A stretch of 64,000 nucleotides of DNA from a virus (IMGVR_UViG_3300019458_000005:1-64000), one strand, 5' to 3'; positions 26,283 to 62,089 are shown, counted from the stretch's first letter. Translations and numbers: made by a program. Notes: generated by a model from the letters alone, not told the origin.

Positions 26283-26296
26283 CGTGGTATACCACG
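26283..26296. promoter_or_regulatory. perfect 14-bp palindrome CGTGGTATACCACG (operator-like) in the divergent switch region
   Basis: Read directly from the sequence. It ends 3 nt before the GTG of the first rightward gene (26300). Confidence 0.5.
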
Positions 26297-26299
26297 CAG

Positions 26300-26815: not shown

Positions 26816-26823
26816 GAGACCAC

Positions 26824-29086: not shown

Positions 29087-29253
29087 GCTGCCGCATCAAG
29101 GACTGGGTTCGCCAAGAGCTCGACGAACCCACTGAGCTCGAGTGCCCTGAGAAGCCCGACGAGTCGGTAGACGGCCACGAGCTCTGCAAGACCCACGCGT
29201 TCGCGGTCCGCGCCTTCGCCCGGAGCTGGGAGCCTGCTACGCTGCCGGCATGA
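29083..29253 (+). CDS. hypothetical protein (56 aa)
   Basis: GTG 29083 forms a GTGA overlap. The stop overlaps the next ATG (ATGA). Confidence 0.4.
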   Translation: MSCRIKDWVRQELDEPTELECPEKPDESVDGHELCKTHAFAVRAFARSWEPATLPA

Positions 29254-30890
29254 CCCAGCCTCGCCCAGTCGTCGCAGCGGCCATGCGTTCGATCTACGCG
29301 CCTCCAGCCACAGCTCACAGCATGGGAGACTTCTTTGACCCGCCGCTCGAGGGGTTGCCCTCGCACCGCCGCAAGGGCGGAGGCGAGGCCGCGCCAGGGT
29401 TCGACTACCGCTGGATCGGCGACAAGGACGTCGGCACCGCCGCCACGATCGACGTGATGAAGAAACTGGCGGTCGACGGGAGCACGCACCCAGGGATCAT
29501 CGCGGCCGCGCAGCGAGTCACGCGTCGCCTCCCTAGCAAGGACTACGAGGCCGAGCTGCGCGCGCTGTTCGAGCTCGTGCGGGAGAACGTGCGCTACAAC
29601 CTCGACCCGCGCGCGATGGAGATGGTCCAACATCCGGCTTACACGATGTTCGTGAGCGGAGTCGGGGACTGCTTCGTGGCCGGGACGCAGGTCCTGCTCA
29701 AGGACGGATACCGCACGATCCCGATCGAGGAGGTGCGAGCTGGGGATCAGATCTGGGGAAAGGACCGCTGGTCTCGCGTCGAGAGGTCCTGGTCCAAGGG
29801 ACGCCTGAGGACCTGGCTCGTTCGGCTGAACAACGGGTCGACCATGCGCCTGACTCCAGACCACAAGGTCTACGTGCTCGATCCTGATTCCGGAGAGGAG
29901 TCGAGGATCACGCTTCGTGAGCTCAGGCCTGGCATGCTGCTCACTCAGCCGGAATCTGTGGCTACCGGGACCGGCGAACAGGACCCGGACATGGCCTACC
30001 TGGACGGGGTCTACCTGTCGGATGGATGGGCCGAGCAGAGCCGGTTCGCGATCTCAGGCAAGGACGGGCACCCGAAAGAGGAACAGAAGCGTAGGGTGCA
30101 GGGGATCTGCTCCCACCGTGGGATCCGTACCAGGTGGGCCAAGAAGTACATCTCGATCCTAGATCGTGATCTCGCCCAGCGCATGCTGAGTATGGGCAGT
30201 AGGGCCTTCAACAAGAAGGCGCTCACAATTGACCTCGAACCGCTCGCCTCCACGCAGCTCCTGTCCGGGATCATGGCCGACTCTGGGCGGAACACTTCCA
30301 GAAAGGAGGCTGAGCTACTAGCTTCGGATCAAAACCTCACAGGCAGGACGTTCACGACCACGTCCTACGCTTTGGCTCTCCAGGTGAGAATTCTCCTCAA
30401 ACAGCAGGGAATCAGCTGCGGAGAGAGCTACGTGCCTGACCATGGAGGCGAGGGTACGCATCCGATCTGGCGACTCCAAACGAGACTTCGTGAGCATGAG
30501 ACCAAAACGCATGTCAAGCGGCTCAAGGTGGTCGAGATCATTCGCGACAACGACCCGCGCGAGTGTTTCGACATCTCCACGGACGACCACTACGTGTGGT
30601 TGCCGCAGGCCGACTGGACGGTCTCGAACTGCGACGATAGCGCGGTCCTCCTGGCCGCCCTCTCGATGGCCGCCGGACACGGCGCGCTCTACCGCACGAT
30701 CCGCACCGACCCGCGTCGCATGGACGAGTTCAGTCACGTCTACCCGCTCCTGGGCTACCGCAACAAGGACGGCGCGTTCTGGTTCTCAAGCGACGTAACC
30801 CACCCGCGCCCCGAAGACGCGCGCTGGGGCTGGGAGGCCCCGCAGGAGGTCCGCTACGGCACGGCCGACTGGATGGTCGCGGGGGTCTAG
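29250..30890 (+). CDS. transglutaminase-like cysteine protease interrupted by an intein
   Basis: The extein reads ..YTMFVSGVGD|CDDSAVLLAALSMAAGHG..FSHVYP..FWFSSDVTHP (Cys-His-Asp transglutaminase-core pattern) once residues 141-460 are removed. Confidence 0.7.
   Translation: MTQPRPVVAAAMRSIYAPPATAHSMGDFFDPPLEGLPSHRRKGGGEAAPGFDYRWIGDKDVGTAATIDVMKKLAVDGSTHPGIIAAAQRVTRRLPSKDYEAELRALFELVRENVRYNLDPRAMEMVQHPAYTMFVSGVGDCFVAGTQVLLKDGYRTIPIEEVRAGDQIWGKDRWSRVERSWSKGRLRTWLVRLNNGSTMRLTPDHKVYVLDPDSGEESRITLRELRPGMLLTQPESVATGTGEQDPDMAYLDGVYLSDGWAEQSRFAISGKDGHPKEEQKRRVQGICSHRGIRTRWAKKYISILDRDLAQRMLSMGSRAFNKKALTIDLEPLASTQLLSGIMADSGRNTSRKEAELLASDQNLTGRTFTTTSYALALQVRILLKQQGISCGESYVPDHGGEGTHPIWRLQTRLREHETKTHVKRLKVVEIIRDNDPRECFDISTDDHYVWLPQADWTVSNCDDSAVLLAALSMAAGHGALYRTIRTDPRRMDEFSHVYPLLGYRNKDGAFWFSSDVTHPRPEDARWGWEAPQEVRYGTADWMVAGV
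29670..30629 (+). mobile_element. intein (320 aa) with LAGLIDADG homing-endonuclease domain
   Basis: Starts CFVAGTQVLLKDG. Block B is LTPDHKV. LAGLIDADG-like motifs YLDGVYLSDGW and LLSGIMADSG. Ends DHYVWLPQADWTVSN followed by the +1 Cys. The central part has lower G+C. Confidence 0.75.
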
Positions 30891-36240: not shown

Positions 36241-37803
36241 GTGGCCAACGGGATCCTGGTCAATAACCTGATCGCCGCCGGGCTCGTCCGTCCGCCGGCC
36301 TGGCAGTCGGCCGCGATGCGCGGCTTCGGGATGGGGGGCCTGGGGAAGGGTCCGGCCGGACCCAGCCAGGAGGCCGTGTCCGCCTCCCAGCGGACCTACG
36401 AGACTACCTACCAGGCGATCGTGTCCCTGATCAACCAGATCCAAGGCGCAGCGCGCGAGGTCGATCAGGCCAGCGGCGGCCTCGACGAGCCGGCGGTGCG
36501 CTCGCTGGTCGACGACGCGATGCTGATCTCGCAGGACGCGCAAGACCGCCTCTCGGAGGCGCGCTCGATCTACGAGCTCGAGCAGGGCTGGGTCGAGTCG
36601 GCCGTTGCCGAGCAGGCGCACGGCGGGTGGGCCTTCGGGCGCGAGTTCGTGCTCACCGCGGCCGGCGCGAGCGCGCAGGGCAACCGCTCAGGCGTGCCGC
36701 TCATGGCCTGGAACAAGGACCAGATCCTGGGCGCGGCCGCCAAGGCCCTGACCTCGATCCAGCGCGGCCTGGCCACGAACCTGGGCCAGCTGCGCGGGCT
36801 GCGCGAGGCCGTCCTGACCAAGGTCAAGCTCACCAAGCAGGCTGCGGCGCAGCAGGCCACGATCGACCTGCGTCAGCAGCAGGAGCAGGCCAAGGTCGAT
36901 CAGCTGGCCGCGATCCGCCAGAAGATCGAGGAGGACAAGCTTCGCCGTGAGGAGGAGGCCGCGACCCGAGCGCAGCTGTTCGCCGAACAGCAGGCGCAGC
37001 GCGCGCAGGAGCTCGAGGAGCGCCGGCAGCAGGCCGCGATCGACAGCGAGAACCGCCGCATCGCGATGCAGGAGCAGCTCGAGCAGTCCCGCATCCGCGC
37101 CGAAGAGCAGCGCCTCAACGCGCAGCTCCAGGCCGAGGCGCAGTCGGCCGCGCTCGAGCAGGCCCGCCTTCAGCAGGAGGTCCAGACCTCGCAGGCTGCC
37201 TCGCAGTTCCAGCTCCAGCTGGAGCAGCAGCGGCAGGCCGCGCTCGTCCAGGCCGAGCTCTCGAAGCTCATGCCTCCTCCGCCACCACTCTATGGGGCGG
37301 GCGCGCTCGCAGTACCCGGCTACGGGATGCCCCAGGGCGCGATCCCGCAGCCCATGATCCCGCCGGGCTGGGACGCCTACTCGGCCGCGGCACAGGCCGG
37401 GGCCACGGCGGCGTTCCCGCAGGTGTGGTCGCCGATCGGCCCGCAGGAGCTCCCCACCATGGCCATGCCGGCCCCTCAGGGCGGCTGGTCGCCCGGAGGC
37501 GAGATGTTCGGCATGGGCGCCATGGCTCCCGGGACGTTCTCTCCCGCCTCGGCGGGTCGGATCCAGCCGACCGGCCTCGAGTCGGTAGCCAACTTCCTGA
37601 GCACGTTGGCGGCTCCGGCCGCGAATGTGATCGACGCGGTCCGCGGGACTCCGCGAGCGCCGGCCATGTCGTCCTCGAGCTCGGGTCCGGACCTCGGGAA
37701 CCTGCTCCTGGCCGGCGTCGCGATCGCTGGCGCGATCTACGTGGGCAAGAAGGTCCTGGGCGGCAAGAAGACGAGCCGCTCCCGCAGCCGGCGGCGCCGG
37801 TAG
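36241..37803 (+). CDS. Gln-rich coiled-coil protein with C-terminal membrane anchor and Arg tail
   Basis: GGAGG 5 nt upstream of the GTG. About 170 aa of Q/E/R/A coiled coil. Ends LGNLLLAGVAIAGAIYVGKKVLGGKKTSRSRSRRRR. Confidence 0.7.
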   Translation: MANGILVNNLIAAGLVRPPAWQSAAMRGFGMGGLGKGPAGPSQEAVSASQRTYETTYQAIVSLINQIQGAAREVDQASGGLDEPAVRSLVDDAMLISQDAQDRLSEARSIYELEQGWVESAVAEQAHGGWAFGREFVLTAAGASAQGNRSGVPLMAWNKDQILGAAAKALTSIQRGLATNLGQLRGLREAVLTKVKLTKQAAAQQATIDLRQQQEQAKVDQLAAIRQKIEEDKLRREEEAATRAQLFAEQQAQRAQELEERRQQAAIDSENRRIAMQEQLEQSRIRAEEQRLNAQLQAEAQSAALEQARLQQEVQTSQAASQFQLQLEQQRQAALVQAELSKLMPPPPPLYGAGALAVPGYGMPQGAIPQPMIPPGWDAYSAAAQAGATAAFPQVWSPIGPQELPTMAMPAPQGGWSPGGEMFGMGAMAPGTFSPASAGRIQPTGLESVANFLSTLAAPAANVIDAVRGTPRAPAMSSSSSGPDLGNLLLAGVAIAGAIYVGKKVLGGKKTSRSRSRRRR

Positions 37804-37818
37804 AAGCGAGCGCGCTCC

Positions 37819-38700
37819 ATGCTTCTCACGCTCGATCAGCTGGAGCGGCTCGAGTCGCTCAAGCAGCTCGCCAAGCGAGATCCGCGCTGGGCCATGGCGC
37901 TCGGGCACCGGAACGCCGGCTACACCGGCATGGGTGCCTGGCACGCCAACCACGGGGCGATCTTGCCCGCGCCCATGAATCCTCTGGAGACCAGCGGCGT
38001 AGGCCTGCTTGACCCGCAGGCCTACGCCGTGTTGCCAGCGGCCGCGAACCTGGTGATCAACCCGCCTCGAGCGGTGAACCAGATCAGCGGCATGGGCGCG
38101 CTTCCGGCTATGCGCACGGGCGCGCTCTCCCCGGCAGCCAAGGGAGCCGCGCCAACCAAGCCGAAATCGAACTCGGACTTCGACAGGCCGGTGCCGGACT
38201 CTACCAAGGCCAGCTACACGAGCGCGGTCAAGCAGCTCGATGGCATGGACCCAGGCCCCGAGAAGGTCGCGATGGCCAACTCGCTTCGGAGGCAGCTCGA
38301 CGGGCTGCCGGACTGGGGTCCGGACACGAACAGCTACTTCTTCAAGGACTACGACAGCTGGCTCGAGCTCAGTCAGCGCGTGGACGCGGCCCGGATGTCC
38401 TACGTCCCCTCGGGCGCACAGAGCCCGCTCGGACCCGGCGCAGGAGACGGGGGCGGTGGTGGCGGAGGGTTCGGCTCGGCGCTCGACTCGATCGGGAGCT
38501 TCCTCTCCACGATCTCGGGCCCGGCGGCCGACATCATTCGCTTCTCGCGGAACCAGCCGTCACAGCCCAGCTTCGTGGCTCCTCCGCCTGATCCAGGCTT
38601 CCCGTGGGGGAAGTTCGCGATCGGGGTTGGAGTGGCCGCCGGGGTCACGCTGGCTCTTCAGGCCACGAAGAAGCCCGCACACAAGGGAAGGAGCCGCTAG
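37819..38700 (+). CDS. tail-anchored membrane protein (293 aa)
   Basis: Ends FAIGVGVAAGVTLALQATKKPAHKGRSR. Shares the module L(E/D)S(V/I).(N/S)FLST...PAA(N/D)(V/I)I with the preceding protein. Confidence 0.65.
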   Translation: MLLTLDQLERLESLKQLAKRDPRWAMALGHRNAGYTGMGAWHANHGAILPAPMNPLETSGVGLLDPQAYAVLPAAANLVINPPRAVNQISGMGALPAMRTGALSPAAKGAAPTKPKSNSDFDRPVPDSTKASYTSAVKQLDGMDPGPEKVAMANSLRRQLDGLPDWGPDTNSYFFKDYDSWLELSQRVDAARMSYVPSGAQSPLGPGAGDGGGGGGGFGSALDSIGSFLSTISGPAADIIRFSRNQPSQPSFVAPPPDPGFPWGKFAIGVGVAAGVTLALQATKKPAHKGRSR

Positions 38701-39029
38701 TGCCATCGCTCACCGAGACCATCGGCCTGGCGCGCATGGAGCAGGAGAAGGTCAAGATGATGCTCTCGGCCGCCTCGGCCGCGAGCGCCATCGGCCGCCC
38801 TGCCCAGGCCGCCGCTATCGGCTCCCAGGCCGCGCAGCAAGCCTCAGTCGGCGAGAAGCTGATCATGAAGGTGGCCAGCGCTGGCCAGGCTGCGTTCGCC
38901 GACGAGGCTGCCGAGATCATGCGGCCAAAGCGGTCGCCGCTGCCTTGGCTGATCGGCGGTGTCGTCGGACTCGTGGGCCTGGGGATCCTGTGGAGAAGGA
39001 GCCGGAGCTCCAAGAAGCGCAAGAAGTAG
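38700..39029 (+). CDS. tail-anchored membrane protein (109 aa)
   Basis: GTG 38700 overlaps the upstream TAG. Ends LPWLIGGVVGLVGLGILWRRSRSSKKRKK. Confidence 0.6.
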   Translation: MPSLTETIGLARMEQEKVKMMLSAASAASAIGRPAQAAAIGSQAAQQASVGEKLIMKVASAGQAAFADEAAEIMRPKRSPLPWLIGGVVGLVGLGILWRRSRSSKKRKK

Positions 39030-39033
39030 CTCC

Positions 39034-39390
39034 ATGCTCGCCGACCTGACCTACCGCATGCTCCAGTCGAAGCAGGTCCAGCCGGCCCTCCAGGGAGTCG
39101 GCCTGGGGATCCTGCCCGCGATCCTGGGCGTGCTGGGGGCGGTCGGGCAGGTCGGGACCTCGCTGGCGAGCCCGTTTCTTGAGGAGGCCTCGAAGGGCGA
39201 ACAGCGTGTGGTCGACGCGGCCGCCAGGACATCGATCGCGCAGGAGCTGCAGGTCAGAGCTCAACAGAAGGCGCTCCGAAACCAGCAGCTGGCGCTCGTG
39301 GGCGCCGGACTCCTGGTGATCGGAGGCGTGGGGTACTTCTTCTACCGGCGGCGGAGCCGCTCAACGACCAAGAAGCGGGGGCGCAAGTGA
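39034..39390 (+). CDS. membrane protein with C-terminal anchor (118 aa)
   Basis: Hydrophobic GVGLGILPAILGVLGAVG, plus a C-terminal LALVGAGLLVIGGVGYFFYRRRSRSTTKKRGRK. Confidence 0.6.
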   Translation: MLADLTYRMLQSKQVQPALQGVGLGILPAILGVLGAVGQVGTSLASPFLEEASKGEQRVVDAAARTSIAQELQVRAQQKALRNQQLALVGAGLLVIGGVGYFFYRRRSRSTTKKRGRK

Positions 39391-39701
39391 GCGGCATGGG
39401 CTACATCTCGGCGGGCTACCTGGCTGGCGCCGCCCCCTCGGGCTTCGGCTACCTGGGACAGGATCAGCGGCAACCGCAGTTCATGCAGTCGCAATCGCAG
39501 CAGACCAGCCAGTCCACGTCCGTGAACGCCTCGGCGACCGGCGGGTCGGTGACCGGCTCAGCCAACGTGGGCAGCCGTGTTGGTCCCACCACCTACTACG
39601 GCGGGGGAGGCGGGGGAGGCCAGATCAACTGGGTCCCGATCGCGCTGGGTGTAGCGGTGGGCGTGGCGCTCATGATCTACCTGAGGAGCCGAGGCAAGTA
39701 G
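39387..39701 (+). CDS. tail-anchored membrane protein (104 aa)
   Basis: GTGA-coupled start. Ends INWVPIALGVAVGVALMIYLRSRGK. Paralogue of the next gene. Confidence 0.6.
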   Translation: MSGMGYISAGYLAGAAPSGFGYLGQDQRQPQFMQSQSQQTSQSTSVNASATGGSVTGSANVGSRVGPTTYYGGGGGGGQINWVPIALGVAVGVALMIYLRSRGK

Positions 39702-39703
39702 CC

Positions 39704-39991
39704 ATGCCGCTCTCGGTCGAGGCCATGCAGAAGCTGCAGCACATGTCTGGCTTGCGCCAGATGGGGCGGTTCTCTGGCCTCGGTCAGAGCGCCGCTCAGC
39801 AGTCCTCGCAGCAGACGAACCAGGCCACGACCGTCAACGTCTACGCAGGCGGCGGCAACATCAGCGACTCGGCCAACGTGGGCAGCTCGGTCGGGAAGGT
39901 GATCCAGGCCGCGCAGCTGAACTACGTCCCGATCATGCTCGGTCTCGCGGGAGCCGCCGCGCTGTGGCTCCTGACCGGGAGGCGGCAGTGA
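39704..39991 (+). CDS. tail-anchored membrane protein (95 aa)
   Basis: Ends LNYVPIMLGLAGAAALWLLTGRRQ. Shares QQ.SQ.T...T.VN..A.GG....SANVGS.VG with the preceding protein. Confidence 0.6.
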   Translation: MPLSVEAMQKLQHMSGLRQMGRFSGLGQSAAQQSSQQTNQATTVNVYAGGGNISDSANVGSSVGKVIQAAQLNYVPIMLGLAGAAALWLLTGRRQ

Positions 39992-40308
39992 GGCTCAACG
40001 CTCCAGCGACCAACCGCGGCATGTTCGTGATCGCGATGCCAAGTCGCGGATCCAGCGGTCTGGGAGCTTCCGCGATCCAGGAGATGTTCGACAAGCTCTT
40101 CAACAAGAAGAAGTCGAAGGCGCGCGAGGAGAAGCGCGATCTCGCGGTCAAGAACTACGGCGAGACCGAGCAGGTCGCGCAAGCCGCCACCTTCCAGATC
40201 CAGCAGGCCTCACAGAAGAACGTCATGACCTACCTGGTGGCCGGAGCAGCCGCAGCCGGAGCGCTGGTTCTCCTGGCTGAGCTGCTCTCGCCCCCGAGGG
40301 GACGCTAG
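39988..40308 (+). CDS. tail-anchored membrane protein (106 aa)
   Basis: GTG 39988 forms a GTGA overlap. Ends MTYLVAGAAAAGALVLLAELLSPPRGR. Confidence 0.55.
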   Translation: MRLNAPATNRGMFVIAMPSRGSSGLGASAIQEMFDKLFNKKKSKAREEKRDLAVKNYGETEQVAQAATFQIQQASQKNVMTYLVAGAAAAGALVLLAELLSPPRGR

Positions 40309-40309
40309 C

Positions 40310-41317
40310 GTGCAGGCCGAACAGGAGCTCTCTGACGCCGAGTGGCTGCGGAGGATCCGGCTCAAGAATCGCCAGGAGCTCGGGCTCGAGGGCCCGCAGG
40401 GAGTCGCGACGATGGACGGCAACGTGAACGGCATCGGCGACTTCATGTACATGAACGCAGCCGCGGGGGGCGTGCCCAGCCCCGAGCAGGACCTGCTCGC
40501 GTACTACGCCGGTCGCCAGGGCGGGAACGCGGACGGCTGGCAGCCGTCCATGATCGACCCCAGGCAGGGCACCTACCACCAGATGCAGATGCCCACCCAC
40601 GCCAACTACGTCGGCCAGGAGGTCGCCGGACAGGCCGTCTCAGGCCTGGGCTACATGGGCGCGGTGGGCGTCTCGGCTGATCAGAAGGCTCAAGCCACCC
40701 TGGCGGTCGAGGGCGCGATCCGCGAGTCCGACCTGCTGTCTCAGCAGACGAACAACGTCTCGGCGGCGCGCCTGATCCTCGAGGCGCAGCGCTCGAGGCT
40801 CTCGAGCCTGAACTGGACCGACAGCTCGTGGGGCGTCGTCGGGCCGCGCTACTCCAGCCGCGCCGACCTGCTCAAGAAGCTCACCGAGGCACAAGCGCGC
40901 GTGATCGCCCGCTCGGGCGCGGTCCGTGAGGACGGCAAGGCGATCTTCGACCCTCGCTCCGTCAACCCGACCACCGGCAAGGCGCGCGTGGACAGCCAGA
41001 TCGGCGCAGCCGCTGGGTCGCTGGTCCAGTCCGGCAAGGAGACTGCGGCCGAGGTCGGTGGCCTCCTGGGAAGCCTCTCCAAGGTCACACAGTTCTTCCT
41101 GGGCTCTCCAACCAGAATCCTGGTCACGACCAGCATCGGACTCGGGGTCTACGGCCTGGTCTACACCGACCTAGGCAAGAAGATCAGCCGGAAGGTCTTC
41201 GGTAGCAAGAAGAAGAACCCTCCGGCTCGTAACCGCCACAAGAAGGCCGCGGTCCGCAAGAACCCCAGCCGCAAGCGGCGCAAGCGCTACCACGAGAACG
41301 ACTCGAGCGACGAGTAG
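40310..41317 (+). CDS. membrane-anchored protein with long Lys/Arg tail (335 aa)
   Basis: ILVTTSIGLGVYGLVYTDLG followed by KKISRKVFGSKKKNPPARNRHKKAAVRKNPSRKRRKRYHENDSSDE. Confidence 0.65.
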   Translation: MQAEQELSDAEWLRRIRLKNRQELGLEGPQGVATMDGNVNGIGDFMYMNAAAGGVPSPEQDLLAYYAGRQGGNADGWQPSMIDPRQGTYHQMQMPTHANYVGQEVAGQAVSGLGYMGAVGVSADQKAQATLAVEGAIRESDLLSQQTNNVSAARLILEAQRSRLSSLNWTDSSWGVVGPRYSSRADLLKKLTEAQARVIARSGAVREDGKAIFDPRSVNPTTGKARVDSQIGAAAGSLVQSGKETAAEVGGLLGSLSKVTQFFLGSPTRILVTTSIGLGVYGLVYTDLGKKISRKVFGSKKKNPPARNRHKKAAVRKNPSRKRRKRYHENDSSDE

Positions 41318-50875: not shown

Positions 50876-50902
50876 AGACCAAAACAGCTAGTATGCCCAG
50901 GC

Positions 50903-51148
50903 ATGCACCACCTGAAAAACGGCCTCCACGTGGAGCGCATCGAGACCCCCGAGGGTCCGAAGATCAGGTTCGTGCTCAAGGCGCTGTTCGAGACGGGCAC
51001 GGTCTTGTGCGAGATCTCGCTCAGAGAGTGGGCCACGGCCGTCGCCAATACCGCAGCTCGCGGCGAGTCGTTGACCTACCAGACGATCCTCGACGCGCTC
51101 ACCGAGCCGCTCCTTCCCAAGTGGCGACCAGGCGACGCAGGAGCGTGA
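50903..51148 (+). CDS. hypothetical protein (81 aa)
   Basis: ORF track. Contains a fourth CTGAAAAAC 9-mer (plus strand, 50912-50920). Confidence 0.45.
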   Translation: MHHLKNGLHVERIETPEGPKIRFVLKALFETGTVLCEISLREWATAVANTAARGESLTYQTILDALTEPLLPKWRPGDAGA

Positions 51149-51150
51149 AC

Positions 51151-52503: not shown

Positions 52504-52940
52504 TGAACCGCCGCAACGCCGAAAGCTCCGACGCTCGAAGACGGCGCGCTTCACGCGGCCGCCGTCAGACCGGTTCGCGCGAGGACGCGGAGCGCGAGTA
52601 CCTCGAGCTACTGAGGCAAGGCAGGCCTCCGGACTTCACAGAGCGCGCACGGCAGGTCATCGAGGAAGGCTGGAACGGCCAAGACTGGCGCTCAGCAAAC
52701 TGGCAAGAAAACAGTGGAGATATCCCATCTGAGAGATTCCTGGTAATCACCAGCGCAGTCGACTACGACGCCGAACACTGGTTCAACGGCGCGAACACCC
52801 TCGCTGAAGCAGCGCACTTCTTGATTGACGCTCTTCACTCCGAGTACCCTGACATGGTGAGTTACGTCATCGACCTGATGTTCATGGAAGAGGTGCCGGC
52901 CCGCTACCGCGCCGAGGTCGGCGGGATCCTGTCTCCGTGA
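52503..52940 (+). CDS. hypothetical protein, leader-family member (145 aa)
   Basis: TGATG-coupled start. MNRRNAESSDARRRRASRG..EREYLELLRQGRPP. Tandem paralogue of the next gene. Confidence 0.6.
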   Translation: MNRRNAESSDARRRRASRGRRQTGSREDAEREYLELLRQGRPPDFTERARQVIEEGWNGQDWRSANWQENSGDIPSERFLVITSAVDYDAEHWFNGANTLAEAAHFLIDALHSEYPDMVSYVIDLMFMEEVPARYRAEVGGILSP

Positions 52941-53434
52941 GACATCGAAACGCCAGCTCGGATGACCGTGCGCGCCGAGCTGAGCGCTACGCTCGAGGAG
53001 GGGACCGCGCCCAGTTCGAGGTGCATTACCAGGAACTTCTCCGGCAGGGTCGGGCGCCGTACTACAACGCCCAGGTGGCCGAGCTCCTGAACTCGGAGTT
53101 CAATCTGCCGTTCGTGCCGGAGTGGATCCGAGATCTAGACCTGTCTGAGTTCATTCAGGCCGAGGTGGTTGGGCCAGGAGAGCTGGGCGGCGTATGGTTC
53201 CGCTACCTGGTGGTCGTGTGCGGCGTAGTCCACAGCTCGGCTGATGCGTGGCTGACCAGCGGCAAGACGCTCAAGGAAGCCGCAGAGCAGTGCCTGATCC
53301 AGCTGCGCGGCGACATCGATCTTCCTTGGCAACCGGTCCTGGTGATCGACCTGGCGTTCATGGAGCCAGTCCCGTTCGACATCGGGATCAGCGTAGGAGG
53401 CGAACAGGCCTGGCAGAGCGAATGGGATCGCTGA
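52937..53434 (+). CDS. hypothetical protein, leader-family member (165 aa)
   Basis: GTGA-coupled start. MRHRNASSDDRARRAERY..VHYQELLRQGRAP. The C-terminal ..LKEAAEQCLIQL..VLVIDLAFMEPVP parallels ..LAEAAHFLIDAL..SYVIDLMFMEEVP in the previous protein. Confidence 0.6.
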   Translation: MRHRNASSDDRARRAERYARGGDRAQFEVHYQELLRQGRAPYYNAQVAELLNSEFNLPFVPEWIRDLDLSEFIQAEVVGPGELGGVWFRYLVVVCGVVHSSADAWLTSGKTLKEAAEQCLIQLRGDIDLPWQPVLVIDLAFMEPVPFDIGISVGGEQAWQSEWDR

Positions 53435-53595: not shown

Positions 53596-54888
53596 ATGAT
53601 CGAGTGGTGGGCGCTCGCGAACCCCCCGCGCCGGAGTCGGCGCCGTCGTCGCCGCTCGAATCCGCTCCCCGCAGGCTGGGGCGGAACCAAGAAGCCCAAG
53701 AAGGCCAAGAAGCGCTCCGGCAAGTCGGCCGCCAAGGCCCGCGCTGCTCAGCAGCAGCGCGACCGCGAGTCGCGCGCCAAGAACCTGCTCTCGGCCTGGA
53801 ATCGCGCTTCGAAGAAGAAGAAGCGCAAGAAGAGCAAGGCGACCAAGAAGTCCAAGAAGAAGTCGGCGCGTAAGGTCGCGCCGAAGCGCAAGAAGAAGGC
53901 CGCGCGTTCGCGCCGCGGCGCTCAAGGAGGGCCCGTGGCCAAGAAGAAGCGGAAGAAGTCCGGCAAGAGGAAGAGCTCCAAGCGCTCGGCCGCCGCCCGC
54001 AAGGGCGCGCGTACCAAGGCGCGCAACAAGGCTAAGCGGAAGGCCGCCGCCAAGAAGGCCGCCCGCAGCCGCGGGAAGAGCGGCGGGGGAGTGCGCAAGG
54101 CCGCGCGTCGTCGCGGCCGGAAGCGCCCGGCTCGCGCCAAGGTCCGGAAGACCCGAGGCGGGAAGGGCCGCATCGTCTACGCCAAGGGCAAGCGCCTGCG
54201 CTGGCGCCGCACCGGCCGCCACTCAGGTCGTCTCGTGATCCGCGGAAATCCGGGCGGGTCAGGCGGGATCCAGGGGAACCTCAAGGCCCTCCTCAAGCCC
54301 GAGCTGTACATCGACGCGGCCCAGGTCGCGCTCGGGCTCGGTGGAGCGCTGGCGCTCCCGGCGCTCCTCGCCCAGAAGATGGGCAAGCCGATGCTCAACC
54401 GCGGCCTCGTGGGCGTGGCGGCGACCGCCGTCTCGTCCGCGGTTCTCGCGGCGGCCGCGGCCGCGGCCGGACAGCGCGCGCTCTCCGGTCGCCTGTTCGC
54501 CGGTGGCGTGCTCGCGGCGGTTGTCAAGCTCGCCGTGCAGGTCATCCCGCCGTCGCTCCTCCAGAAGATCCTCCCGCTCAACGAGCTCAACCGCGGCGCG
54601 ATCGCTGCGGCTCCGGCCGCGAGCGGTGCGGTCAACGGGATGGGCTACTACGGGAGCGGCGTGGGCAACCTCGTGCCCTACTCCGCGATCAACGGCATGG
54701 CCGACCTGCTCACGCCCGAGCAGATGATCGCAGGCGAGGCGTTCTACGGGCGCATGAACGGCATGGGTCGCACCGGCGACTACCTGCAGCTGGGCATGGG
54801 GGACTACCTCCAGTTCGGCCAGGCGGCCAACGTGCCCCAGTTCACGTCCGTGCTCGACAGCTTCAACCCCGGGGGTGAGGCCTTCTAG
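53596..54888 (+). CDS. H1/protamine-like Lys/Arg-rich domain fused to a multi-helix hydrophobic domain
   Basis: GGAGA upstream of ATG. About 200 aa of KKPKKAKKRSGKSAAKARAA..KKKKRKKSKATKKSKKKSARK..RRRGRKRPARAKVRK. Then hydrophobic helices (AQVALGLGGALALPALLA; GLVGVAATAVSSAVLAAAAAAAG; LFAGGVLAAVVKLAVQVI). Confidence 0.7.
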   Translation: MIEWWALANPPRRSRRRRRRSNPLPAGWGGTKKPKKAKKRSGKSAAKARAAQQQRDRESRAKNLLSAWNRASKKKKRKKSKATKKSKKKSARKVAPKRKKKAARSRRGAQGGPVAKKKRKKSGKRKSSKRSAAARKGARTKARNKAKRKAAAKKAARSRGKSGGGVRKAARRRGRKRPARAKVRKTRGGKGRIVYAKGKRLRWRRTGRHSGRLVIRGNPGGSGGIQGNLKALLKPELYIDAAQVALGLGGALALPALLAQKMGKPMLNRGLVGVAATAVSSAVLAAAAAAAGQRALSGRLFAGGVLAAVVKLAVQVIPPSLLQKILPLNELNRGAIAAAPAASGAVNGMGYYGSGVGNLVPYSAINGMADLLTPEQMIAGEAFYGRMNGMGRTGDYLQLGMGDYLQFGQAANVPQFTSVLDSFNPGGEAF

Positions 54889-55135: not shown

Positions 55136-55801
55136 ATGGGTCCTCAAGGCATGCCGGTCGTCGCGCTGCCCACTCCCGGAGTGGTCGGCGGGCGTCCTCG
55201 CAAGCAGCCTCTCGTCGACACCGAGGTGATCGGTGGGACGGCGGCTGTCCCGGCGGAGATCAACATCTACGCCAACTTCAGCCAGTTCCGCATCGCGCCC
55301 ATCGTCAACACGAACATCACCCAGACGAAGCAGTACGGGCGCGATACGAACCTGAAGAGCTCCGGCGGCGGCACCTTGCCGCAGTCGTCGTTCTTCTACT
55401 GGTACAAGAGCCGGATCGTCCTCAAGACGTACCTCACCGCGCTCAACACCAGCGGGAACTGCGTCGCGTACGAGGAGATCCAGCGCCTCAGGTTCCTGGG
55501 CGCCTGGTTCTTCAACTTCCAGCAGACCGAGCTGGTCGTGATGCCGCTCGACGAGCTCCCCTCGGGCGTCGGCTCGGCCGCCGGCTCGACCAGCTCGATC
55601 AACAACATCAACGCCCCGAGCCTCACCTGGGGCCCGTGGGACGGTCGTGACATGACCGTCTCGGGTCGCCCGGTTGGCATCGAGGCGCTGCAGCAGTTCA
55701 ACGTGAACATCAAGTGGCCGCAGACCACCGGCTTCACGCCGACCCTCGACTACTTCATCTCGTCGCGTCTCGACGGCCTGCTGCTCCTGGGCATCAGCTA
55801 G
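55136..55801 (+). CDS. beta-rich structural protein (221 aa); candidate single jelly-roll capsid/penton protein
   Basis: AAGGAAAG upstream of ATG 55136. No helix-rich or low-complexity regions. Followed by the strongest hairpin in the window. Confidence 0.5.
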   Translation: MGPQGMPVVALPTPGVVGGRPRKQPLVDTEVIGGTAAVPAEINIYANFSQFRIAPIVNTNITQTKQYGRDTNLKSSGGGTLPQSSFFYWYKSRIVLKTYLTALNTSGNCVAYEEIQRLRFLGAWFFNFQQTELVVMPLDELPSGVGSAAGSTSSINNINAPSLTWGPWDGRDMTVSGRPVGIEALQQFNVNIKWPQTTGFTPTLDYFISSRLDGLLLLGIS

Positions 55802-55838
55802 TCGACCTACCCGACCGCGTAGTTCCGCTCGTTCCTCT

Positions 55839-55868
55839 CAGCGGCCCTGGATCACTCCAGGGCCGCTG
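55839..55868 (+). terminator. strong hairpin terminator after the 221-aa structural gene
   Basis: CAGCGGCCCTGGA-tcac-TCCAGGGCCGCTG: 13-bp perfect stem, 4-nt loop. Confidence 0.6.
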
Positions 55869-56022
55869 GTCTGTACGCGCTTCCCCGCCCGCGCTCGACC
55901 TGCTAGGCTGTTCCGTAGCCCGAAGCGCCCCAAGGCTTACCAGCCCACACGCGCTTCCTCGAGGCCTCACCCGCAGCCGGAGCTCCACAGGACCTCTCGC
56001 TCGAGCGCGGAGAGGTCTTCCC

Positions 56023-57084
56023 GTGCAGGCTCAGCTCCACGTCGGCGAAAACGCCTGGAACCCCTACGCGAACGTGCCCTTGCTTATGCGCGGGCCCGAT
56101 CCGCGCACCGGCAAACAGAAGACCTACGTCAACCGCGGCAAGTACTCGCAGAAGTTCTGCGAGTTCACCACGCAGACCTACCCGATCACGGTGCCCGCCA
56201 ACGCGCGGAACCGGACCTCGATCGTGCCTCAGGCAGACCAGGGCGGCGCGGGCGACGTCGAGTTCTACCAGTGGTGGTCGGCCTCGACCGGGCAGTACGC
56301 GGTGATGCTCACGAACCTGGCCATGGGCGGGATCAAGCTCATGAACCAGCCGGTCGAGAGCTCGCTGATCTTCGGCAACGGCCCCCAGCTCCCCGGAAAG
56401 CTCCTCCAGCCGGTGTTCGTGGCCGCGACCGACGCGCTCGACGTCGAGCTCACCGACCTCTCGGGCCTCTCGAACGACGTGCGCCTGGTCGCGCATGGCT
56501 GCCAGATCGTCGACCCCATGAACACCCTGGGCGTCACCCAGCAGCAGGTTCGGGCCGCGATGTACAACCCGAACGTCGTCCCCTACTGGCTCACGTTCGA
56601 CTCGGGCTCGCAGGTGACCGTGGCCGGTAGCGCCTCGGGCACCGAGTTCACGATGACCATCCCCTCGAACGGCGACTTCAACAGCTGGTCGCTCGTGGGC
56701 CGAACCACCGCGCCCACCGCTCTCACGGTCGAGATCTTCGAGGGAAACCGCCGCAGGTTGATGAACGGCCCGATCCGCTTCGACCAGTGCATGTCGACCA
56801 CCGGCCAGACGGCCTCGCTGAACGCGGCCTCGATCCCGTTCGTGTGGAACTTCTCGCACACGTTCGAGCGAAAGACCCAGCTCGTGTTCCGCTTCACCGA
56901 CACCAGCGCCTCGCCCCAGGTGATCTCCTGCGCGCTATGGGGACAGATCGTCTACTACGATCAGAGCCCGCCCTCGCTCACTGCGATCAACAGCCTGCGC
57001 GGAGTAGCACAGGCCATGGCGCCGGCTTACGCGGCGCCGTCCGGCCAGATGGTCGGCATGCGCGGCCTCCGGGGCCGGCGGTAA
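56023..57084 (+). CDS. beta-rich structural protein (353 aa) with internal tandem duplication; candidate double jelly-roll major capsid protein
   Basis: GAGAGG 7 nt upstream of GTG 56023. The two halves share IKLMNQPV..(L)TDLSG..GCQIV and RRLMNGPI..(F)TDTSA..GQIVY at similar spacing. Confidence 0.45.
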   Translation: MQAQLHVGENAWNPYANVPLLMRGPDPRTGKQKTYVNRGKYSQKFCEFTTQTYPITVPANARNRTSIVPQADQGGAGDVEFYQWWSASTGQYAVMLTNLAMGGIKLMNQPVESSLIFGNGPQLPGKLLQPVFVAATDALDVELTDLSGLSNDVRLVAHGCQIVDPMNTLGVTQQQVRAAMYNPNVVPYWLTFDSGSQVTVAGSASGTEFTMTIPSNGDFNSWSLVGRTTAPTALTVEIFEGNRRRLMNGPIRFDQCMSTTGQTASLNAASIPFVWNFSHTFERKTQLVFRFTDTSASPQVISCALWGQIVYYDQSPPSLTAINSLRGVAQAMAPAYAAPSGQMVGMRGLRGRR

Positions 57085-57093
57085 GAGGCCACC

Positions 57094-58317
57094 GTGCTCA
57101 ACCACCGCGTCTCGCCGCCAGTGCCGTTCCACCTGCTTCCGCCCCACATCCAGGCGGCGATCGCGGCTCGCGCTCAGCGCGTGAACGGTCCGTCCGGTCC
57201 TCCCGGCGGAGGCACAGCTCCGGGAGGTATGGCTGGCCTGGGGAACTTCGGCATCGCTGGCTCGCCTGAGCCATGGTCCCTGCCTCCCTACGCTCAGCGC
57301 CTTCCGCTGGTCGCTCGAGCCGGCCAGCTGGGACAGGCCGGCGCGGCCCCGGAGCTCCTTCCGGCCGGCCCGGACGCGGCCAACCTCCAGGCCGCCGATC
57401 CGGTTGGCCCCGCGAACCCTTGGGCCGGGACGCCGCTCGAGGACCTGCCGCTCCTTGAGGCGCTGAAGCTCGCGTCGCGTCAACTGGTGTGGATCCAGCA
57501 CCCGTCGCCGATCGACAGCAAGCCGCTCCTGGGCACGCGCGAGCAGTACACCGAGACGGCCGTGATCGCCCCGCCCACCGACATCGCTTCCGCTGGCGCG
57601 ACCGCTGGAGCTCAGGCCTTGGCCGATGGCTACAGCTCGAGCTCGGGAGAGGTGACCGCGGTTCTCACGCCAGCCAACGCCGCCGACTTCGAGACGATAT
57701 TCCAGTTCACTGTCCCTCCGGGGCGCGCGTTCCTGGTGTGGTCGGTGGCCGGCGAGTGCCACGACTACCTGGGCATGGCGAACGTGATCAAGTTCCGGGT
57801 CCGGGTGGGCACGACCCTGATCGTCCCCGAGACGCAGCTGGGCTTGATCGGCGCGCCCTCGAACCAGCTCGTCGTGCAGGAGATGGCCTACGAGAACCAG
57901 ACGGTGTTCTTCGAGGGCCGAAACCTCGACGGCGAGTCCGGCACGCTCGTGACCGCTTACCTCCTGGGCTGGAGCTTCCCACTCAAGGGCACCGGCCTCG
58001 ACTGGGGCGACCTCTCGAGCAGCGGCAGCTCGACCTGGGGCGAGCGCGAGGGACCCGAGGCCATGGACCCCGGCGAGCCGGTTCGGATCCCGCTCTCGCA
58101 GGCTGCGCCAGGGAACCCACGCTACGGCGGCCTCCCGGTGTGGACTCACCCGCTCAACGGCGAGGCCGTATGGGCGCCGGTCCAAGGCATCCCTGGCCTC
58201 TCCGACCCGCGTTGGGCGGGTTACCGCATGACCTGGACCGGGACCATGTTCGTGGTCGATCAGCACAGCCAGCCGCTGCCTGGGTTCGACCTGGCCACGA
58301 TGACGATCTACGGGTAG
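57094..58317 (+). CDS. structural protein (407 aa): Gly/Pro/Ala-rich N-terminus plus beta-sandwich-like C-terminal domain
   Basis: AAGAGG upstream of the GTG. FQFTVPPGRAFLVWSVAG..VIKFRVRVG..NQTVFFEGRNLDGESGTLVTAYLLGWSFP. Confidence 0.55.
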   Translation: MLNHRVSPPVPFHLLPPHIQAAIAARAQRVNGPSGPPGGGTAPGGMAGLGNFGIAGSPEPWSLPPYAQRLPLVARAGQLGQAGAAPELLPAGPDAANLQAADPVGPANPWAGTPLEDLPLLEALKLASRQLVWIQHPSPIDSKPLLGTREQYTETAVIAPPTDIASAGATAGAQALADGYSSSSGEVTAVLTPANAADFETIFQFTVPPGRAFLVWSVAGECHDYLGMANVIKFRVRVGTTLIVPETQLGLIGAPSNQLVVQEMAYENQTVFFEGRNLDGESGTLVTAYLLGWSFPLKGTGLDWGDLSSSGSSTWGEREGPEAMDPGEPVRIPLSQAAPGNPRYGGLPVWTHPLNGEAVWAPVQGIPGLSDPRWAGYRMTWTGTMFVVDQHSQPLPGFDLATMTIYG

Positions 58318-58320: not shown

Positions 58321-58686
58321 ATGAGCGTCTCGATCGGACACTTCTGGCTGCGAGTCAAGGACGTGAGCGCCTCCGAGCGCTTCTACGTACTCCTGGGGCT
58401 CGAGCTGGTCGAGCGCCTGCGAAATGTGACGGTGCTCGGGGCACGCGGCCACTCGCATGTGTGCCTCCAGAAGAGCCTGACCACCCAGCCGCGTCGGCTT
58501 CCGATCGACTTCATGGTCGACAACCTGGAGGAGACGCTGTCCGTATTCAAGCAGGCCGGGTTTGCTCCTTCACAGATCGAGCGCGACCGCGAGTCCGACC
58601 ACCGCTCGTTCGTGGTCAAGGACCCCGACGGACACGAGGTCGAGGTGATCTCCAGCCATATCCCGATCCCACAGGCAGTGGAGTAG
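58321..58686 (+). CDS. VOC (glyoxalase/bleomycin-resistance/dioxygenase) family protein
   Basis: IGHFWLRVKDVSASERFYVLLGLELV.. ..SFVVKDPDGHEVEVI, the classic VOC pattern. Confidence 0.65.
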   Translation: MSVSIGHFWLRVKDVSASERFYVLLGLELVERLRNVTVLGARGHSHVCLQKSLTTQPRRLPIDFMVDNLEETLSVFKQAGFAPSQIERDRESDHRSFVVKDPDGHEVEVISSHIPIPQAVE

Positions 58687-59941: not shown

Positions 59942-62089
59942 ATGGGTGTCGGCAAGATCCTCGCAGTGATGGGCGGCGCCAATATCGCCCCTGTGTTGGG
60001 CGGACCGCTCACGCTGGGCGACGGCACGGTCTCGAAGGGCCTCAAGCTGGGCCAGGCCGCGGCGGACCCGCTCCATATCAAGGGCTCTGCCGACCCTAAC
60101 GGGAGCGTGACCGCCCCAGCTGGCTCGCTCTACCAGCGAACCAACGGCAGCGCGTACATCAACACCAACAGCGCGACCACGTGGGCTCAGGTCCAGGCCG
60201 GGGCGGTGGCCACATGGGCGGCCACGCTGGCTTCAGGAAACGTGACCGGGGGCACCTCGCCAGTCCTCTCGAGCGGCGACACGTTCCGGGGGGTGGACGC
60301 AGCGACCGGGACGCCCATGGCGATCCGGGGCGGAAACTCGAGCGGGGCTGCCACGGCGGGCGGCGCGGTCACCGTCACCGGCGGCAACTCGACCACCTCG
60401 GGGGCCGGGGGCGCGGTCACGATCAGAGGCGGCACGCCGACCTCTGGGATAGGCGGAGCGATCACGCTGTCTATCCCAACCTCCACTTCTGGTGCTGGCG
60501 GCGCGGTCTCGATCTCTGCTGGCGACGCTGACGGGTCCAATGCCGGAGGAGCGGTCACGATCGAGGGCGGCGCGCGCGGGAACGTCGGAAACGCGGACGG
60601 CGGGCGACTCACGCTCGCTGGCGGCGTGTCTGGTACTGGAGGTGACGCAACCCTTGCCGGAGGCGCTCAGGGCCCAGGCGGTTCGGGCTCGACCAACGGA
60701 GGCGCCGTAATCGTCACAGGAGGGACGCCCAGTACCACCGGAAGCGGCGGAAACGCGACGCTGCAGGGCTCTGCTGGCGGCTCCTCCGGCAACCGCAACG
60801 GCGGCAACGTCACGGTCACGGCCGGCAACGCCGGTACGGGTGGCACGGGGGCCGCCGGCACGGTCACGATCACCGCGGGCCAGGGCGGGACGACCTCGGT
60901 CGGCGGAACGGCCTCGCTCGTGGCTGGCCAAGGCGGCTCTGGCAACTCGGCTGGCGGTGCGGCCTCGGTGACCGGCGGGCAAGGTGGCGCGACCGGCGGC
61001 AACGGGGGAAACGTCACGATCTCTGGCGGCCTGGGCGTGGCTACCGGGGCGCCGGGCGGGAACGTCACTATCCAGGGCGGGGCAGGAACGGACGGCCCTG
61101 GCTCTCAGCTGACCCTCCAAGGCCGCCCTGGCGTGGGCACAAACCGCGCGGGTGGTGCGGTCACCGTGTCCGCGGGTGCCTCGACTGGGAATGCGACCGG
61201 CGGCAGCGTCAACATTACCGCGGGCGCAGGCGGCGCGACCGGAACCGCGGGAACTGCCTCGCTCACGGCCGGAGCAGGCGGCACGGGTGCGGCGACCGGC
61301 GGCCCGATCACGATCACCTCAGGGGCAGGCGGGGGGACCTCTGGCGCGTCCGGGACGGTGACGCTCGCCTCGGGAACGACCACCTCGGGCAACTCGGGCG
61401 CGATCACGGTCCAGCCTGGCGCGCCAACCGCAGGTAACGGTGGAGCGATCAACGTCACCGGGGCCGCGGGCAACGGCTCCAACAACGTCGGCAGCACGAT
61501 CACGATCCTGGCCGGGGCTTCGGTGGGCACCGGGACGGGCGGCGCGGTAGCAGCCACGGCCGGAGCGGGCGGCGGGGGAGCGGCCACCGGCGGAGCCGTC
61601 ACGCTCACCTCCGGCGCGGGCGGCGGCACCTCCGGCAACTCCGGCGCGATCTCGCTGGTCACCGGCACGACCACCTCGGGCAACACGGGCGATATCAACC
61701 TCACTTGCGGAGCCCCGACCGGTGGCACGCGCGGGCGGATCGTCCACACCGGGAACGTGATCCCCGCGGCCGACAACACCTACTCGCTGGGGATTGCGGG
61801 CACGGCCTGGTCGGACCTGTTCCTCGAGGCCGTGATCGACACGACCGCGGGCGATGCCGCCACGATCGACGCGCCAGCGGGCAGGTTCCGGAAGGACACC
61901 AGCGGGACCACGTTCACGTTGACGAACAACCGGATTAGCGCGAGCTCAATCATTCTGCTCACGTTCGTGGACGTGGACGTGACGGCCTTCAATATGGCAG
62001 TGGCCGCTGGAGCCGGGAGCGCGGTGATCACGTTCAACGCGGCGCCTACCGCGAATTGCAACGTGAACTTCCTGGTGATCAACGCGTGA
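59942..62089 (+). CDS. Gly-rich repeat fibre/spike protein (715 aa)
   Basis: GAGGAG upstream. N-terminal GSLYQRTNGSAYINTNSATTW. About 30 degenerate repeats of GG(A/N)(V/I)T(V/I).(G/A)G...(T/S)G. Distinct C-terminal domain. Confidence 0.7.
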   Translation: MGVGKILAVMGGANIAPVLGGPLTLGDGTVSKGLKLGQAAADPLHIKGSADPNGSVTAPAGSLYQRTNGSAYINTNSATTWAQVQAGAVATWAATLASGNVTGGTSPVLSSGDTFRGVDAATGTPMAIRGGNSSGAATAGGAVTVTGGNSTTSGAGGAVTIRGGTPTSGIGGAITLSIPTSTSGAGGAVSISAGDADGSNAGGAVTIEGGARGNVGNADGGRLTLAGGVSGTGGDATLAGGAQGPGGSGSTNGGAVIVTGGTPSTTGSGGNATLQGSAGGSSGNRNGGNVTVTAGNAGTGGTGAAGTVTITAGQGGTTSVGGTASLVAGQGGSGNSAGGAASVTGGQGGATGGNGGNVTISGGLGVATGAPGGNVTIQGGAGTDGPGSQLTLQGRPGVGTNRAGGAVTVSAGASTGNATGGSVNITAGAGGATGTAGTASLTAGAGGTGAATGGPITITSGAGGGTSGASGTVTLASGTTTSGNSGAITVQPGAPTAGNGGAINVTGAAGNGSNNVGSTITILAGASVGTGTGGAVAATAGAGGGGAATGGAVTLTSGAGGGTSGNSGAISLVTGTTTSGNTGDINLTCGAPTGGTRGRIVHTGNVIPAADNTYSLGIAGTAWSDLFLEAVIDTTAGDAATIDAPAGRFRKDTSGTTFTLTNNRISASSIILLTFVDVDVTAFNMAVAAGAGSAVITFNAAPTANCNVNFLVINA

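Follow-up and report, generated by a model that had tools for sequence, protein, structure and literature searches.

Which particle might the genes G1, G2 and G3, three consecutive genes of a putative virus, build? They lie in IMGVR_UViG_3300019458_000005:1-64000, a stretch of 64,000 nt (the window) that is part of a larger circular genome. A first-pass annotation had described their products as beta-rich structural proteins, the second of them a candidate double jelly-roll (DJR) major capsid protein. The results suggest that G1-G3 are probably the capsid-shell module of a large, circular, integrase-bearing, tailless bacterial virus, which probably has an internal membrane. Homology and genomic context point to this capsid role. 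The virus most likely represents an undescribed lineage of large tailless phages resembling SSIP-1.

G2 and its link to phage SSIP-1

Judged from family profiles, a jelly-roll domain has been duplicated in tandem in G2. In the G2 sequence by itself, the halves align no better than shuffles do (Smith-Waterman, z 0.63); the internal repeat proposed earlier thus fails for the sequence taken singly and stands for the family. When the N- and C-terminal halves of a 10-member family are compared as profiles (hhalign), 125 columns align with an E-value of 1.3e-8 and a probability of 95.6%, and the three motifs of the proposed repeat (LMNxP, TDxS and GxQIV) are in register. An exhaustive search also finds many distant family members in which the C-half matches the N-half profile.

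An AlphaFold2 model of G2, built from 10 sequences, has a predicted local distance difference test score (pLDDT) of 69.5 and a predicted template-modelling score (pTM) of 0.67. It contains two sandwiches of about eight strands each. Each half has a short helix (residues 113-117 and 253-256) between the presumed F and G strands; the strand letters are assigned from the secondary-structure string of the model, not from coordinates. A helix after the F strand is a feature of DJR capsid proteins and of DUF2961, and is absent in PNGase F (PMC8812541). In a Foldseek search of the PDB, PHM, which is classed as a DJR fold (PMC8812541), comes out on top (E 4.8e-6, TM-score ~0.4). The list also contains the capsid proteins of STIV (3j31_P; E 1e-3, TM-score 0.22) and PM2 (P2, 2vvf_A; E 2.9e-3, probability 1.0, TM-score 0.38/0.47) and, more weakly, that of faustovirus. 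No HK97, P23-77, HHIV-2 or SH1 coat protein is found among the top 50 PDB matches. Among predicted viral structures the best match is I1ZBI0, an unnamed protein of 256 residues (E 9.8e-10, TM-score 0.51/0.67). The model supports a predicted fold of two jelly rolls, as first proposed, with DJR-fold proteins (PHM, PM2 P2, STIV) as its matches.

The G2 family is large. A search of a 5.8-billion-protein index returned 10 relatives; an exhaustive profile search returned 523 clusters at 50% identity (230 of them at E<=1e-10), mostly of 280-500 residues. Identity across the lineage is 20-30%. G1 and G2 belong to no Pfam, PHROG or NCBIfam family, and neither G2 nor any of 86 aligned family members matches these libraries or a PDB sequence. 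Glycines alone are near-invariant in the alignment of the 86 members; there is no conserved His, Met or catalytic residue. A structural rather than a catalytic protein is therefore favoured. A hydrophobicity scan predicts no transmembrane segment in G2 or in G1.

SSIP-1 is a tailless phage of 44 kb with an internal membrane and a T=49 capsid (PMC6260650, PMC6356626). It has two major capsid protein types (PMC6356626, PMC4958249) and is grouped with the two-coat-protein viruses (PMC4958249, PMC5332951); its coat fold is listed as 'single jelly roll?' (PMC6260650). A hidden Markov model (HMM) of the G2 family, made from 86 sequences, ranks SSIP-1 gp47 first of the 57 SSIP-1 proteins (E 1.8e-6; runner-up 0.049). 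The match scores 18.9 bits; the highest score among 2000 shuffles was 9.0, and the reversed sequence gave 0.3. It lies in the G-H-I strands with the TDxS motif, and hhalign agrees weakly (E 7e-4). Pairwise phmmer comparisons of gp47 with G2-family members are no better than those with control proteins; the profile test alone is significant. gp47 is the sole 256-aa protein of SSIP-1 (JN880423) and is annotated 'structural protein'. Besides itself, it has no relative among cultured phages.

A second link to SSIP-1 is a transglutaminase-like protein encoded in the same arm of the genome as G1-G3. It matches the SSIP-1 structural protein gp34 (phmmer E 1.5e-9). gp34 matches Pfam Transglut_core, and the extein of the protein described here also has a transglutaminase core. 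These comparisons show homology of G2 to gp47 and of the transglutaminase-like protein to gp34, both of them virion proteins of SSIP-1. Sequence similarity to SSIP-1 was found in only 2 of the ~30 proteins compared.

Other likenesses concern organisation. Both gp47 and G2 carry a repeated strand motif, (F/V)(T/S)(D/N)(T/S)S...V...G. In both genomes a protein of ~210-220 residues is encoded directly upstream of the double jelly-roll gene; here it is G1, and in SSIP-1 it is gp45/gp46, which are structural, ~210 aa long and paralogues of each other (E 1e-12). Both genomes encode many C-terminally anchored membrane proteins, those of SSIP-1 including the structural proteins gp34 and gp41, and both lack tailed-phage genes. 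The two differ in genome size (43.8 kb vs 81.7 kb here) and in the length of the protein compared (256 aa in gp47 vs 353 aa in G2), and they share no related genes for replication or nucleotide metabolism. Among the window proteins, phmmer found no counterpart of the structural ATPase gp40 of SSIP-1 (Pfam AAA_25) or of its giant gp43.

G1, its hairpin and G3

G1 is the most conserved protein of the module. Its family contains 80 proteins after one profile iteration, with 35-50% identity, on contigs of 31-94 kb and two longer ones. The N-terminal arm is basic and nearly invariant across the family (LPTPGVVGGRPRKQPLVDTE; PTPGVVGGRPRKEPLYDTE). An AlphaFold2 model from 69 sequences (pLDDT 79, pTM 0.75) is an eight-stranded sandwich with one helix. 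For G1 and G2 the models thus agree with the beta-rich character first described, and no HK97 resemblance appears among the listed Foldseek matches of either. The weak, non-significant Foldseek list for G1 consists mostly of jelly-roll coat proteins, with some phage cement proteins; it includes SPV1, bromoviruses, sobemoviruses, circoviruses, picornaviruses, the FLiP penton and vaccinia D13. No P23-77, HHIV-2 or SH1 coat protein is found in the top 50 PDB matches of the model. Nothing in Pfam, PHROG, NCBIfam or PDB sequences matches G1. The protein is proposed to be an abundant small capsid protein.

The arm is also found outside G1 itself. A 101-aa open reading frame at the right edge of the window (L001 10878-11183) ends in LPQPGMVIGRPRREPLYDTLGW, a copy of the G1 N-terminal arm (G1-family HMM E 8e-8), and a divergent G1 homologue of 351 aa from a metagenome-assembled genome has two copies of it. 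Possibly the arm is an interaction motif that can move between proteins.

The pairing of G1 with G2 extends to other elements. Downstream of G1 there are always G2-family genes, adjacent to it in L005, L007, L016 and L018 and past a gap of 2-3 kb containing a Mom/LAGLIDADG gene in L012/L013. A single G2-family gene follows in close relatives and in L016, and two paralogues follow in L012/L013 and L018. The arrangement of G1, hairpin and G2 is conserved across elements at 33-50% identity.

The gene calls themselves are sound. Third-position GC is 0.83-0.90 in all three genes, as in real genes of the sequence, and the calls are identical in three independent public assemblies; the positions originally given hold. 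The spacer between G1 and G2 is 221 nt long. It contains the hairpin that the first-pass annotation had described as a 13-bp terminator stem. The stem is perfect and its fold energy is well below that of shuffles (z -4.5); it is the longest perfect stem-loop in any intergenic region of the window. A consensus terminator scan does not call it, and no T-run follows it. In L005, L007 and L012 the G1 homologue is likewise followed, at the corresponding position, by a hairpin of 14-16 bp, and the sequences all differ; in L012, which has a lower GC content, a U-rich tract follows. Across four lineages, therefore, the position right after the G1 stop is conserved and the sequence is not. The hairpin is probably a terminator, an attenuator or an mRNA-stabilising element, and it would set G1 expression above that of G2. 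The longest stem-loop of the whole window is another one (14 bp, perfect and GC-rich, with a 7-nt loop), located inside the gene of a 293-aa membrane protein.

The N-terminal third of G3 is rich in Pro, Gly and Ala; its C-terminal part is unique. Searches of Pfam, PHROG, NCBIfam and PDB gave no match for G3, and no relative was found in phage records, IMG/VR or JGI metagenome contigs. Its 90%-identity cluster contains copies from its own genome only. At the G3 position, relatives hold a gene of 176-189 aa which is barely alignable, with at most a weak Pro/Gly-rich N-terminal resemblance. G3 can be described as a variable, lineage-specific gene at a conserved position. Because the position is conserved while the content varies, a vertex or host-recognition role can be guessed at; a spike or another surface protein would be similar guesses.

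Few relatives are found in genome catalogues. Close G2 alignment scans gave no match in IMG/VR or GTDB genomes. IMG/VR contains only two G1-bearing contigs, and no close G2 relative; GTDB genomes contain one G1-bearing contig, in a Deltaproteobacteria metagenome-assembled genome, and a second bacterial metagenome-assembled genome has a divergent G1 fusion. A tblastn search of 50,697 phage records with G1, G2, G3 and a distant G1 homologue found nothing, and literature searches found no description of this G1/G2 lineage. The G2 family is present in complete or near-complete elements of 63-94 kb and in contigs of up to 245 kb.

The larger contigs vary in type. L016 is a 94,429-bp uncultivated viral genome (UViG) in which the G1 homologue is followed by one G2-family gene. 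L013 and L015 are contigs of 245,276 bp (IMG/VR UViG 3300017971_000001), and L018 is a 190,544-bp contig (JAJDAN010000066.1, 'Deltaproteobacteria bacterium OFTM107'); in these, G1 is followed by two G2-family paralogues of about 480-570 aa. Contigs from two samples share the length of 245,276 bp exactly and begin at different points, so that a circular replicon is suggested. The 190-245-kb contigs are possibly jumbo viruses or host replicons with prophages.

Genome context and alternative readings

Three contigs from different assemblies (81,695, 81,790 and 81,808 bp) contain the whole window. Their start points differ, the window spans the ends of two of the three, and the overlap-trimmed lengths agree (81,808-141 = 81,695-28 = 81,667). 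The source genome is therefore an 81,667-bp circle. It was expected to be far larger than known bacterial members of the double jelly-roll group, and it is: prokaryotic DJR viruses, at 7-18 kb, have among the smallest double-stranded DNA virus genomes (PMC5894146), and SSIP-1 has 44 kb.

Precomputed Pfam tables and scans with Pfam, PHROG and NCBIfam covered nearly all called genes of the circle, except for a 2-kb stretch inside a glycosyltransferase/methyltransferase gene. No terminase, portal, HK97 capsid, tail or tape-measure family was found in these library scans of the 81.7-kb circle. An HK97-type capsid protein encoded elsewhere in the genome, which the first-pass annotation had named as contrary evidence, was looked for across the circle and none was detected. 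A coiled-coil protein has a weak tape-measure-like match (E 0.006). The sole canonical Walker A motif of the genome is that of a PIF1 helicase. A relaxed Walker A scan adds helicases and an uncharacterised 814-aa protein with GVRLGGKS, which matches nothing in Pfam, PHROG, NCBIfam or PDB sequences. Some DJR groups (Odin, FLiP) likewise have no FtsK/HerA ATPase (PMC5894146). No DNA polymerase was recognised in the genome.

The membrane-protein cluster and the Lys-rich membrane protein reported earlier are recovered by the hydrophobicity scan. In the cluster, most products end in one transmembrane helix and a Lys/Arg tail of 5-14 residues, e.g. ...GGKKTSRSRSRRRR; the first is a 520-aa protein with a long Gln-rich coiled coil. 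L005 and L007 have partial homologues of the cluster at the same position. The Lys-rich protein directly upstream of G1 is conserved at this place in L007 (E 3.9e-35) and is proposed to be a membrane-anchored DNA-binding protein of an inner vesicle. The tail-anchored design with basic tails is unusual; it would place positive charge on one face of a membrane.

G2 arose by duplication of a jelly roll and, if G1-G3 are a shell module, would form its pseudo-hexagonal capsomers. Alongside it G1 would be another shell protein made in abundance, like the small-plus-large coat pairs of P23-77 and SSIP-1, and G3 a variable, peripheral vertex or host-recognition protein. The Lys-rich three-helix protein and the tail-anchored proteins would be the protein complement of a lipid vesicle around the DNA. 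Capsomer composition, the relative abundance of G1 and G2, the inner membrane and the role of G3 are all things we infer from the genes.

Other readings of the same genes can be made. G1-G3 could form a classical PRD1/PM2 module in which G2 is the single major capsid protein and forms the trimers, G1 is the 60-copy penton base and G3 the vertex spike. The order of a small jelly-roll-like protein, a DJR protein and a variable protein does fit a penton-capsid-spike module; the non-significant G1 matches include the FLiP penton and other jelly-roll coat proteins, and PM2 P2 is the best match of G2 among solved capsid proteins. Even so, this reading is unlikely. A hairpin between G1 and G2, found in four lineages, would reduce expression of the protein required 60(T-1) times compared with that of a protein required 60 times. 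G1 is also more conserved than G2 (35-50% vs 20-30%), and a penton does not usually exceed a major capsid protein in this respect; moreover, SSIP-1 has two major capsid protein types according to reviews (PMC6356626, PMC4958249). A co-major shell role for G1 is likelier than a 60-copy penton because the hairpin probably keeps G1 above G2. It is quite improbable that G2 is a non-capsid DJR protein of cellular type (kin of PHM, PNGase F or DUF2961) on an integrative plasmid-like element, with G1-G3 as surface or secreted proteins. PHM has the best PDB E-values for G2, the element encodes an integrase, and the scans for a packaging ATPase gave none; in addition, two G1-bearing contigs, one of which also has two G2 paralogues, are binned in bacterial metagenome-assembled genomes. 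But the 86 G2-family members conserve glycines and no catalytic residues, G2 has no Pfam match to PHM, PNGase F or DUF2961 and the 86 members match no PHROG. Neither G1 nor G2 has a predicted transmembrane segment. Moreover, G2 is homologous to a protein of SSIP-1 virions, and elsewhere, too, the genome is virus-like.

A highly divergent tailed phage is very improbable as the source. G1-G3 would then be accessory beta-sandwich proteins (decoration or cement, baseplate or fibre), and the hallmark genes would be too divergent to detect. The cement proteins of the tailed phages KHP40 and Pam1 are among the weak G1 matches, many tail-fibre or tail proteins occur at low TM-score in the G2 list of predicted viral structures, and the tape-measure-like coiled-coil match, weak as it is, points the same way. 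Many genes in other parts of the element (Mom, an L5 gp82-like domain and phrog_2554) have tailed-phage homologues. A large terminase is normally easy to detect, however, and the complete circle has none; no portal, tail tube, tape-measure-sized or HK97-like protein was found in it either. Both sequence links to a cultured virus lead to virion proteins of SSIP-1, which is tailless.

Several results weigh against a capsid-shell module of SSIP-1 type. The gp47 sequence match covers just 38 residues, and I1ZBI0, the best structural match, is probably gp47, an identification made from its 256-aa length. The G1 profile does not match gp45/gp46 significantly (hhalign E 0.11, collinear over 158 columns), profile comparison of G1 with G2 shows no similarity, and the Foldseek search of the PDB with G1 gives nothing significant (best E 0.18). 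The G2 model is of moderate confidence, with TM-scores of 0.38-0.47 to solved DJR capsid proteins, and the non-viral PHM has better E-values than those capsid proteins. G3 is not conserved in related elements. Pfam/PHROG and Walker A scans of the 81.7-kb circle found no FtsK/HerA-type or other candidate packaging ATPase, and phmmer found nothing like gp40 among the window proteins.

With a shell module still the preferred reading, the architecture can be compared with the known groups. A PRD1/PM2/STIV-like or P23-77-like capsid had been proposed; the double jelly-roll of G2 agrees with this, but the nearest known relative is SSIP-1, and an FtsK/HerA ATPase, a hallmark of these groups, was not found. 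As in the DJR proteins of Bamfordvirae (PM2 P2, PRD1 P3, STIV B345), there are two predicted jelly rolls in a chain of ~270-400 aa, a helix that follows the presumed F strand in both rolls (PMC8812541) and membrane proteins in the genomic context. Unlike these, G2 shows modest TM-scores and no sequence similarity to them, the genome is 5-10 times larger than the typical 7-18 kb (PMC5894146), FtsK/HerA ATPase is lacking, and G1, which is small and better conserved, appears to be a second major protein beside G2. Helvetiavirae (P23-77 VP16/VP17, HHIV-2, SH1) are the two-coat-protein viruses with vertical single beta-barrels among which SSIP-1 has been placed (PMC4958249, PMC5332951). They have adjacent coat genes, small then large, of which G1 and G2 are candidate equivalents, and an internal membrane, which here is deduced from genes. 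The ATPase gene that precedes their coat genes and is conserved among them has no equivalent here, and the barrels of VP17 are stacked (PMC4958249), whereas the predicted barrels of G2 are homologous duplicates that match side-by-side DJR folds. Cellular DJR-fold proteins (PHM, PNGase F, DUF2961) resemble G2 in that PHM has the best Foldseek E-values. They differ in that G2 has no Pfam match and no conserved metal-binding or catalytic residues; its gene lies in a virus-like genome beside membrane-protein genes, and it has a homologue among phage virion proteins.

A broader reading, which falls a little short of probable, is that G1 and G2 define a large, diverse and hitherto undescribed lineage of bacterial viruses, tailless and with a membrane, whose sole cultured member, a distant one, is SSIP-1. 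Genomes would range from ~44 kb to at least 82-94 kb, possibly to 190-245 kb; the shell would consist of an abundant small jelly-roll-like protein and one or two double jelly-roll proteins, and DNA would be packaged without a recognisable terminase or FtsK/HerA ATPase.

SSIP-1 had stood alone since 2012, with the fold of its capsid protein unresolved; gp47 is now tied to a family of 523 clusters whose profiles show a tandem jelly-roll duplication. The genome described here is roughly 2-10 times the size known for SSIP-1-like and DJR-type tailless phages of bacteria, and all tailed-phage hallmarks are absent in the one complete genome examined (the 81.7-kb circle). If particles confirm this, a major group of large non-tailed phages has been overlooked, mostly missed by viral-contig catalogues. 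It would be a test case for the scaling-up of jelly-roll capsids and for DNA packaging without a known motor, and a bacterial counterpart to the genome-size expansion of eukaryotic giant DJR viruses. It would also bear on how double jelly-roll capsid proteins originated, which is under debate; the lineage could be intermediate between the two-coat-protein and DJR capsid architectures.

Other features of the window

The features discussed are collected in Table 1. The sequence has a GC content of 65%. Its coding strand and AT skew change sign at ~25,500-26,300, the skew being negative up to 26 kb and positive beyond. This is the point of divergent transcription between two arms, and possibly also a replication origin. 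The plus-strand genes of the right arm include a class II ribonucleotide reductase, the intein-split transglutaminase-like protein, the membrane-protein cluster and G1-G3. G3 is followed by a glyoxalase-family gene, two small genes and a Gly-rich repetitive protein. Beyond the window, the same circle encodes a tyrosine integrase and has glycosyltransferase/methyltransferase genes.

Table 1. Positions of genes and other features in the 64,000-nt window.
Feature	Position	Strand	Description
Left arm	to ~25.5 kb	-	Replication, recombination and nucleotide metabolism; SNF2 helicase, ThyX, PD-(D/E)XK nuclease, Rad52, PIF1 helicase, C5 methylase, Mom
GVRLGGKS protein	555-2999	-	814 aa
Coiled-coil match	26695-28407		Weak tape-measure-like match
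Transglutaminase-like protein	29250..30890	+	Cysteine-protease fold; intein at catalytic Cys; SSIP-1 gp34 homologue
Class II ribonucleotide reductase	31663-34857	+	Insertion after NPC motif
Membrane-protein cluster	36241..41317	+	Eight consecutive genes (hydrophobicity scan)
Membrane-protein gene	37819-38700		293 aa
Longest stem-loop of window	37995-38029		Inside the 293-aa gene
NP(D/S)ERMRRAER motif genes	41363-53434		Starts 41363, 42278, 44479, 46160, 48124, 52341, 52937; also L001 11180-11485
phrog_2554 protein	42278-44326		682 aa
Lys-rich membrane protein	53596..54888	+	430 aa; directly upstream of G1; ~220-aa Lys/Arg-rich N-terminal half, then three predicted transmembrane helices
G1	55136..55801	+	221 aa
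GC-rich hairpin	55839..55868	+	37 nt past G1 stop; 13 Watson-Crick pairs and one G-U; 4-nt loop
G2	56023..57084	+	353 aa; GTG start, GGAGAGG upstream
G2, predicted first roll	56149-56508	+	Residues ~43-162
G2, predicted second roll	56575-56952	+	Residues ~185-310
G3	57094..58317	+	407 aa
Glyoxalase/bleomycin-resistance (VOC) family gene	58321-58686		Between G3 and downstream putative structural genes
Repetitive protein	59942..62089	+	715 aa, Gly/Ala/Thr-rich; candidate fibre or spike, from composition
Open reading frame with G1 arm	63717 to beyond 64000	-	101 aa

The VOC-family gene is not found at this position in L005 or L007. The 715-aa repetitive protein has no family match in the Pfam, PHROG and NCBIfam scans.

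Inteins or intein-like insertions occur in two right-arm genes. In the transglutaminase-like protein, which has Pfam intein/Hint matches, the extein reads GVGDC/DDSAVLLAALSMAAG; the intein sits exactly at the GDC/DD catalytic cysteine, and the homologues in L005 and L007 are intein-free. This intein-bearing 546-aa protein was considered as a split packaging ATPase and rejected: its extein is transglutaminase-like. The class II ribonucleotide reductase has an insertion of ~150 aa after its NPC motif which resembles a putative mini-intein.

The 682-aa protein matches phrog_2554 over residues 66-331 (E 6e-62). This domain is present in 151 tailed phages (Mycobacterium, Gordonia, Klebsiella, Microcystis, Roseobacter), where it is annotated as hypothetical throughout, and it is also conserved near the L018 capsid genes. 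A role as a virion protein was rejected; the domain sits in non-structural regions of many tailed phages.

The motif NP(D/S)ERMRRAER...LGDxEA...L is found in at least eight otherwise unrelated proteins, in an N-terminal or internal position. Three copies are present in a 655-aa DUF6884 protein, and no known family matches the motif. These proteins might share it as a tag for targeting, interaction or processing.

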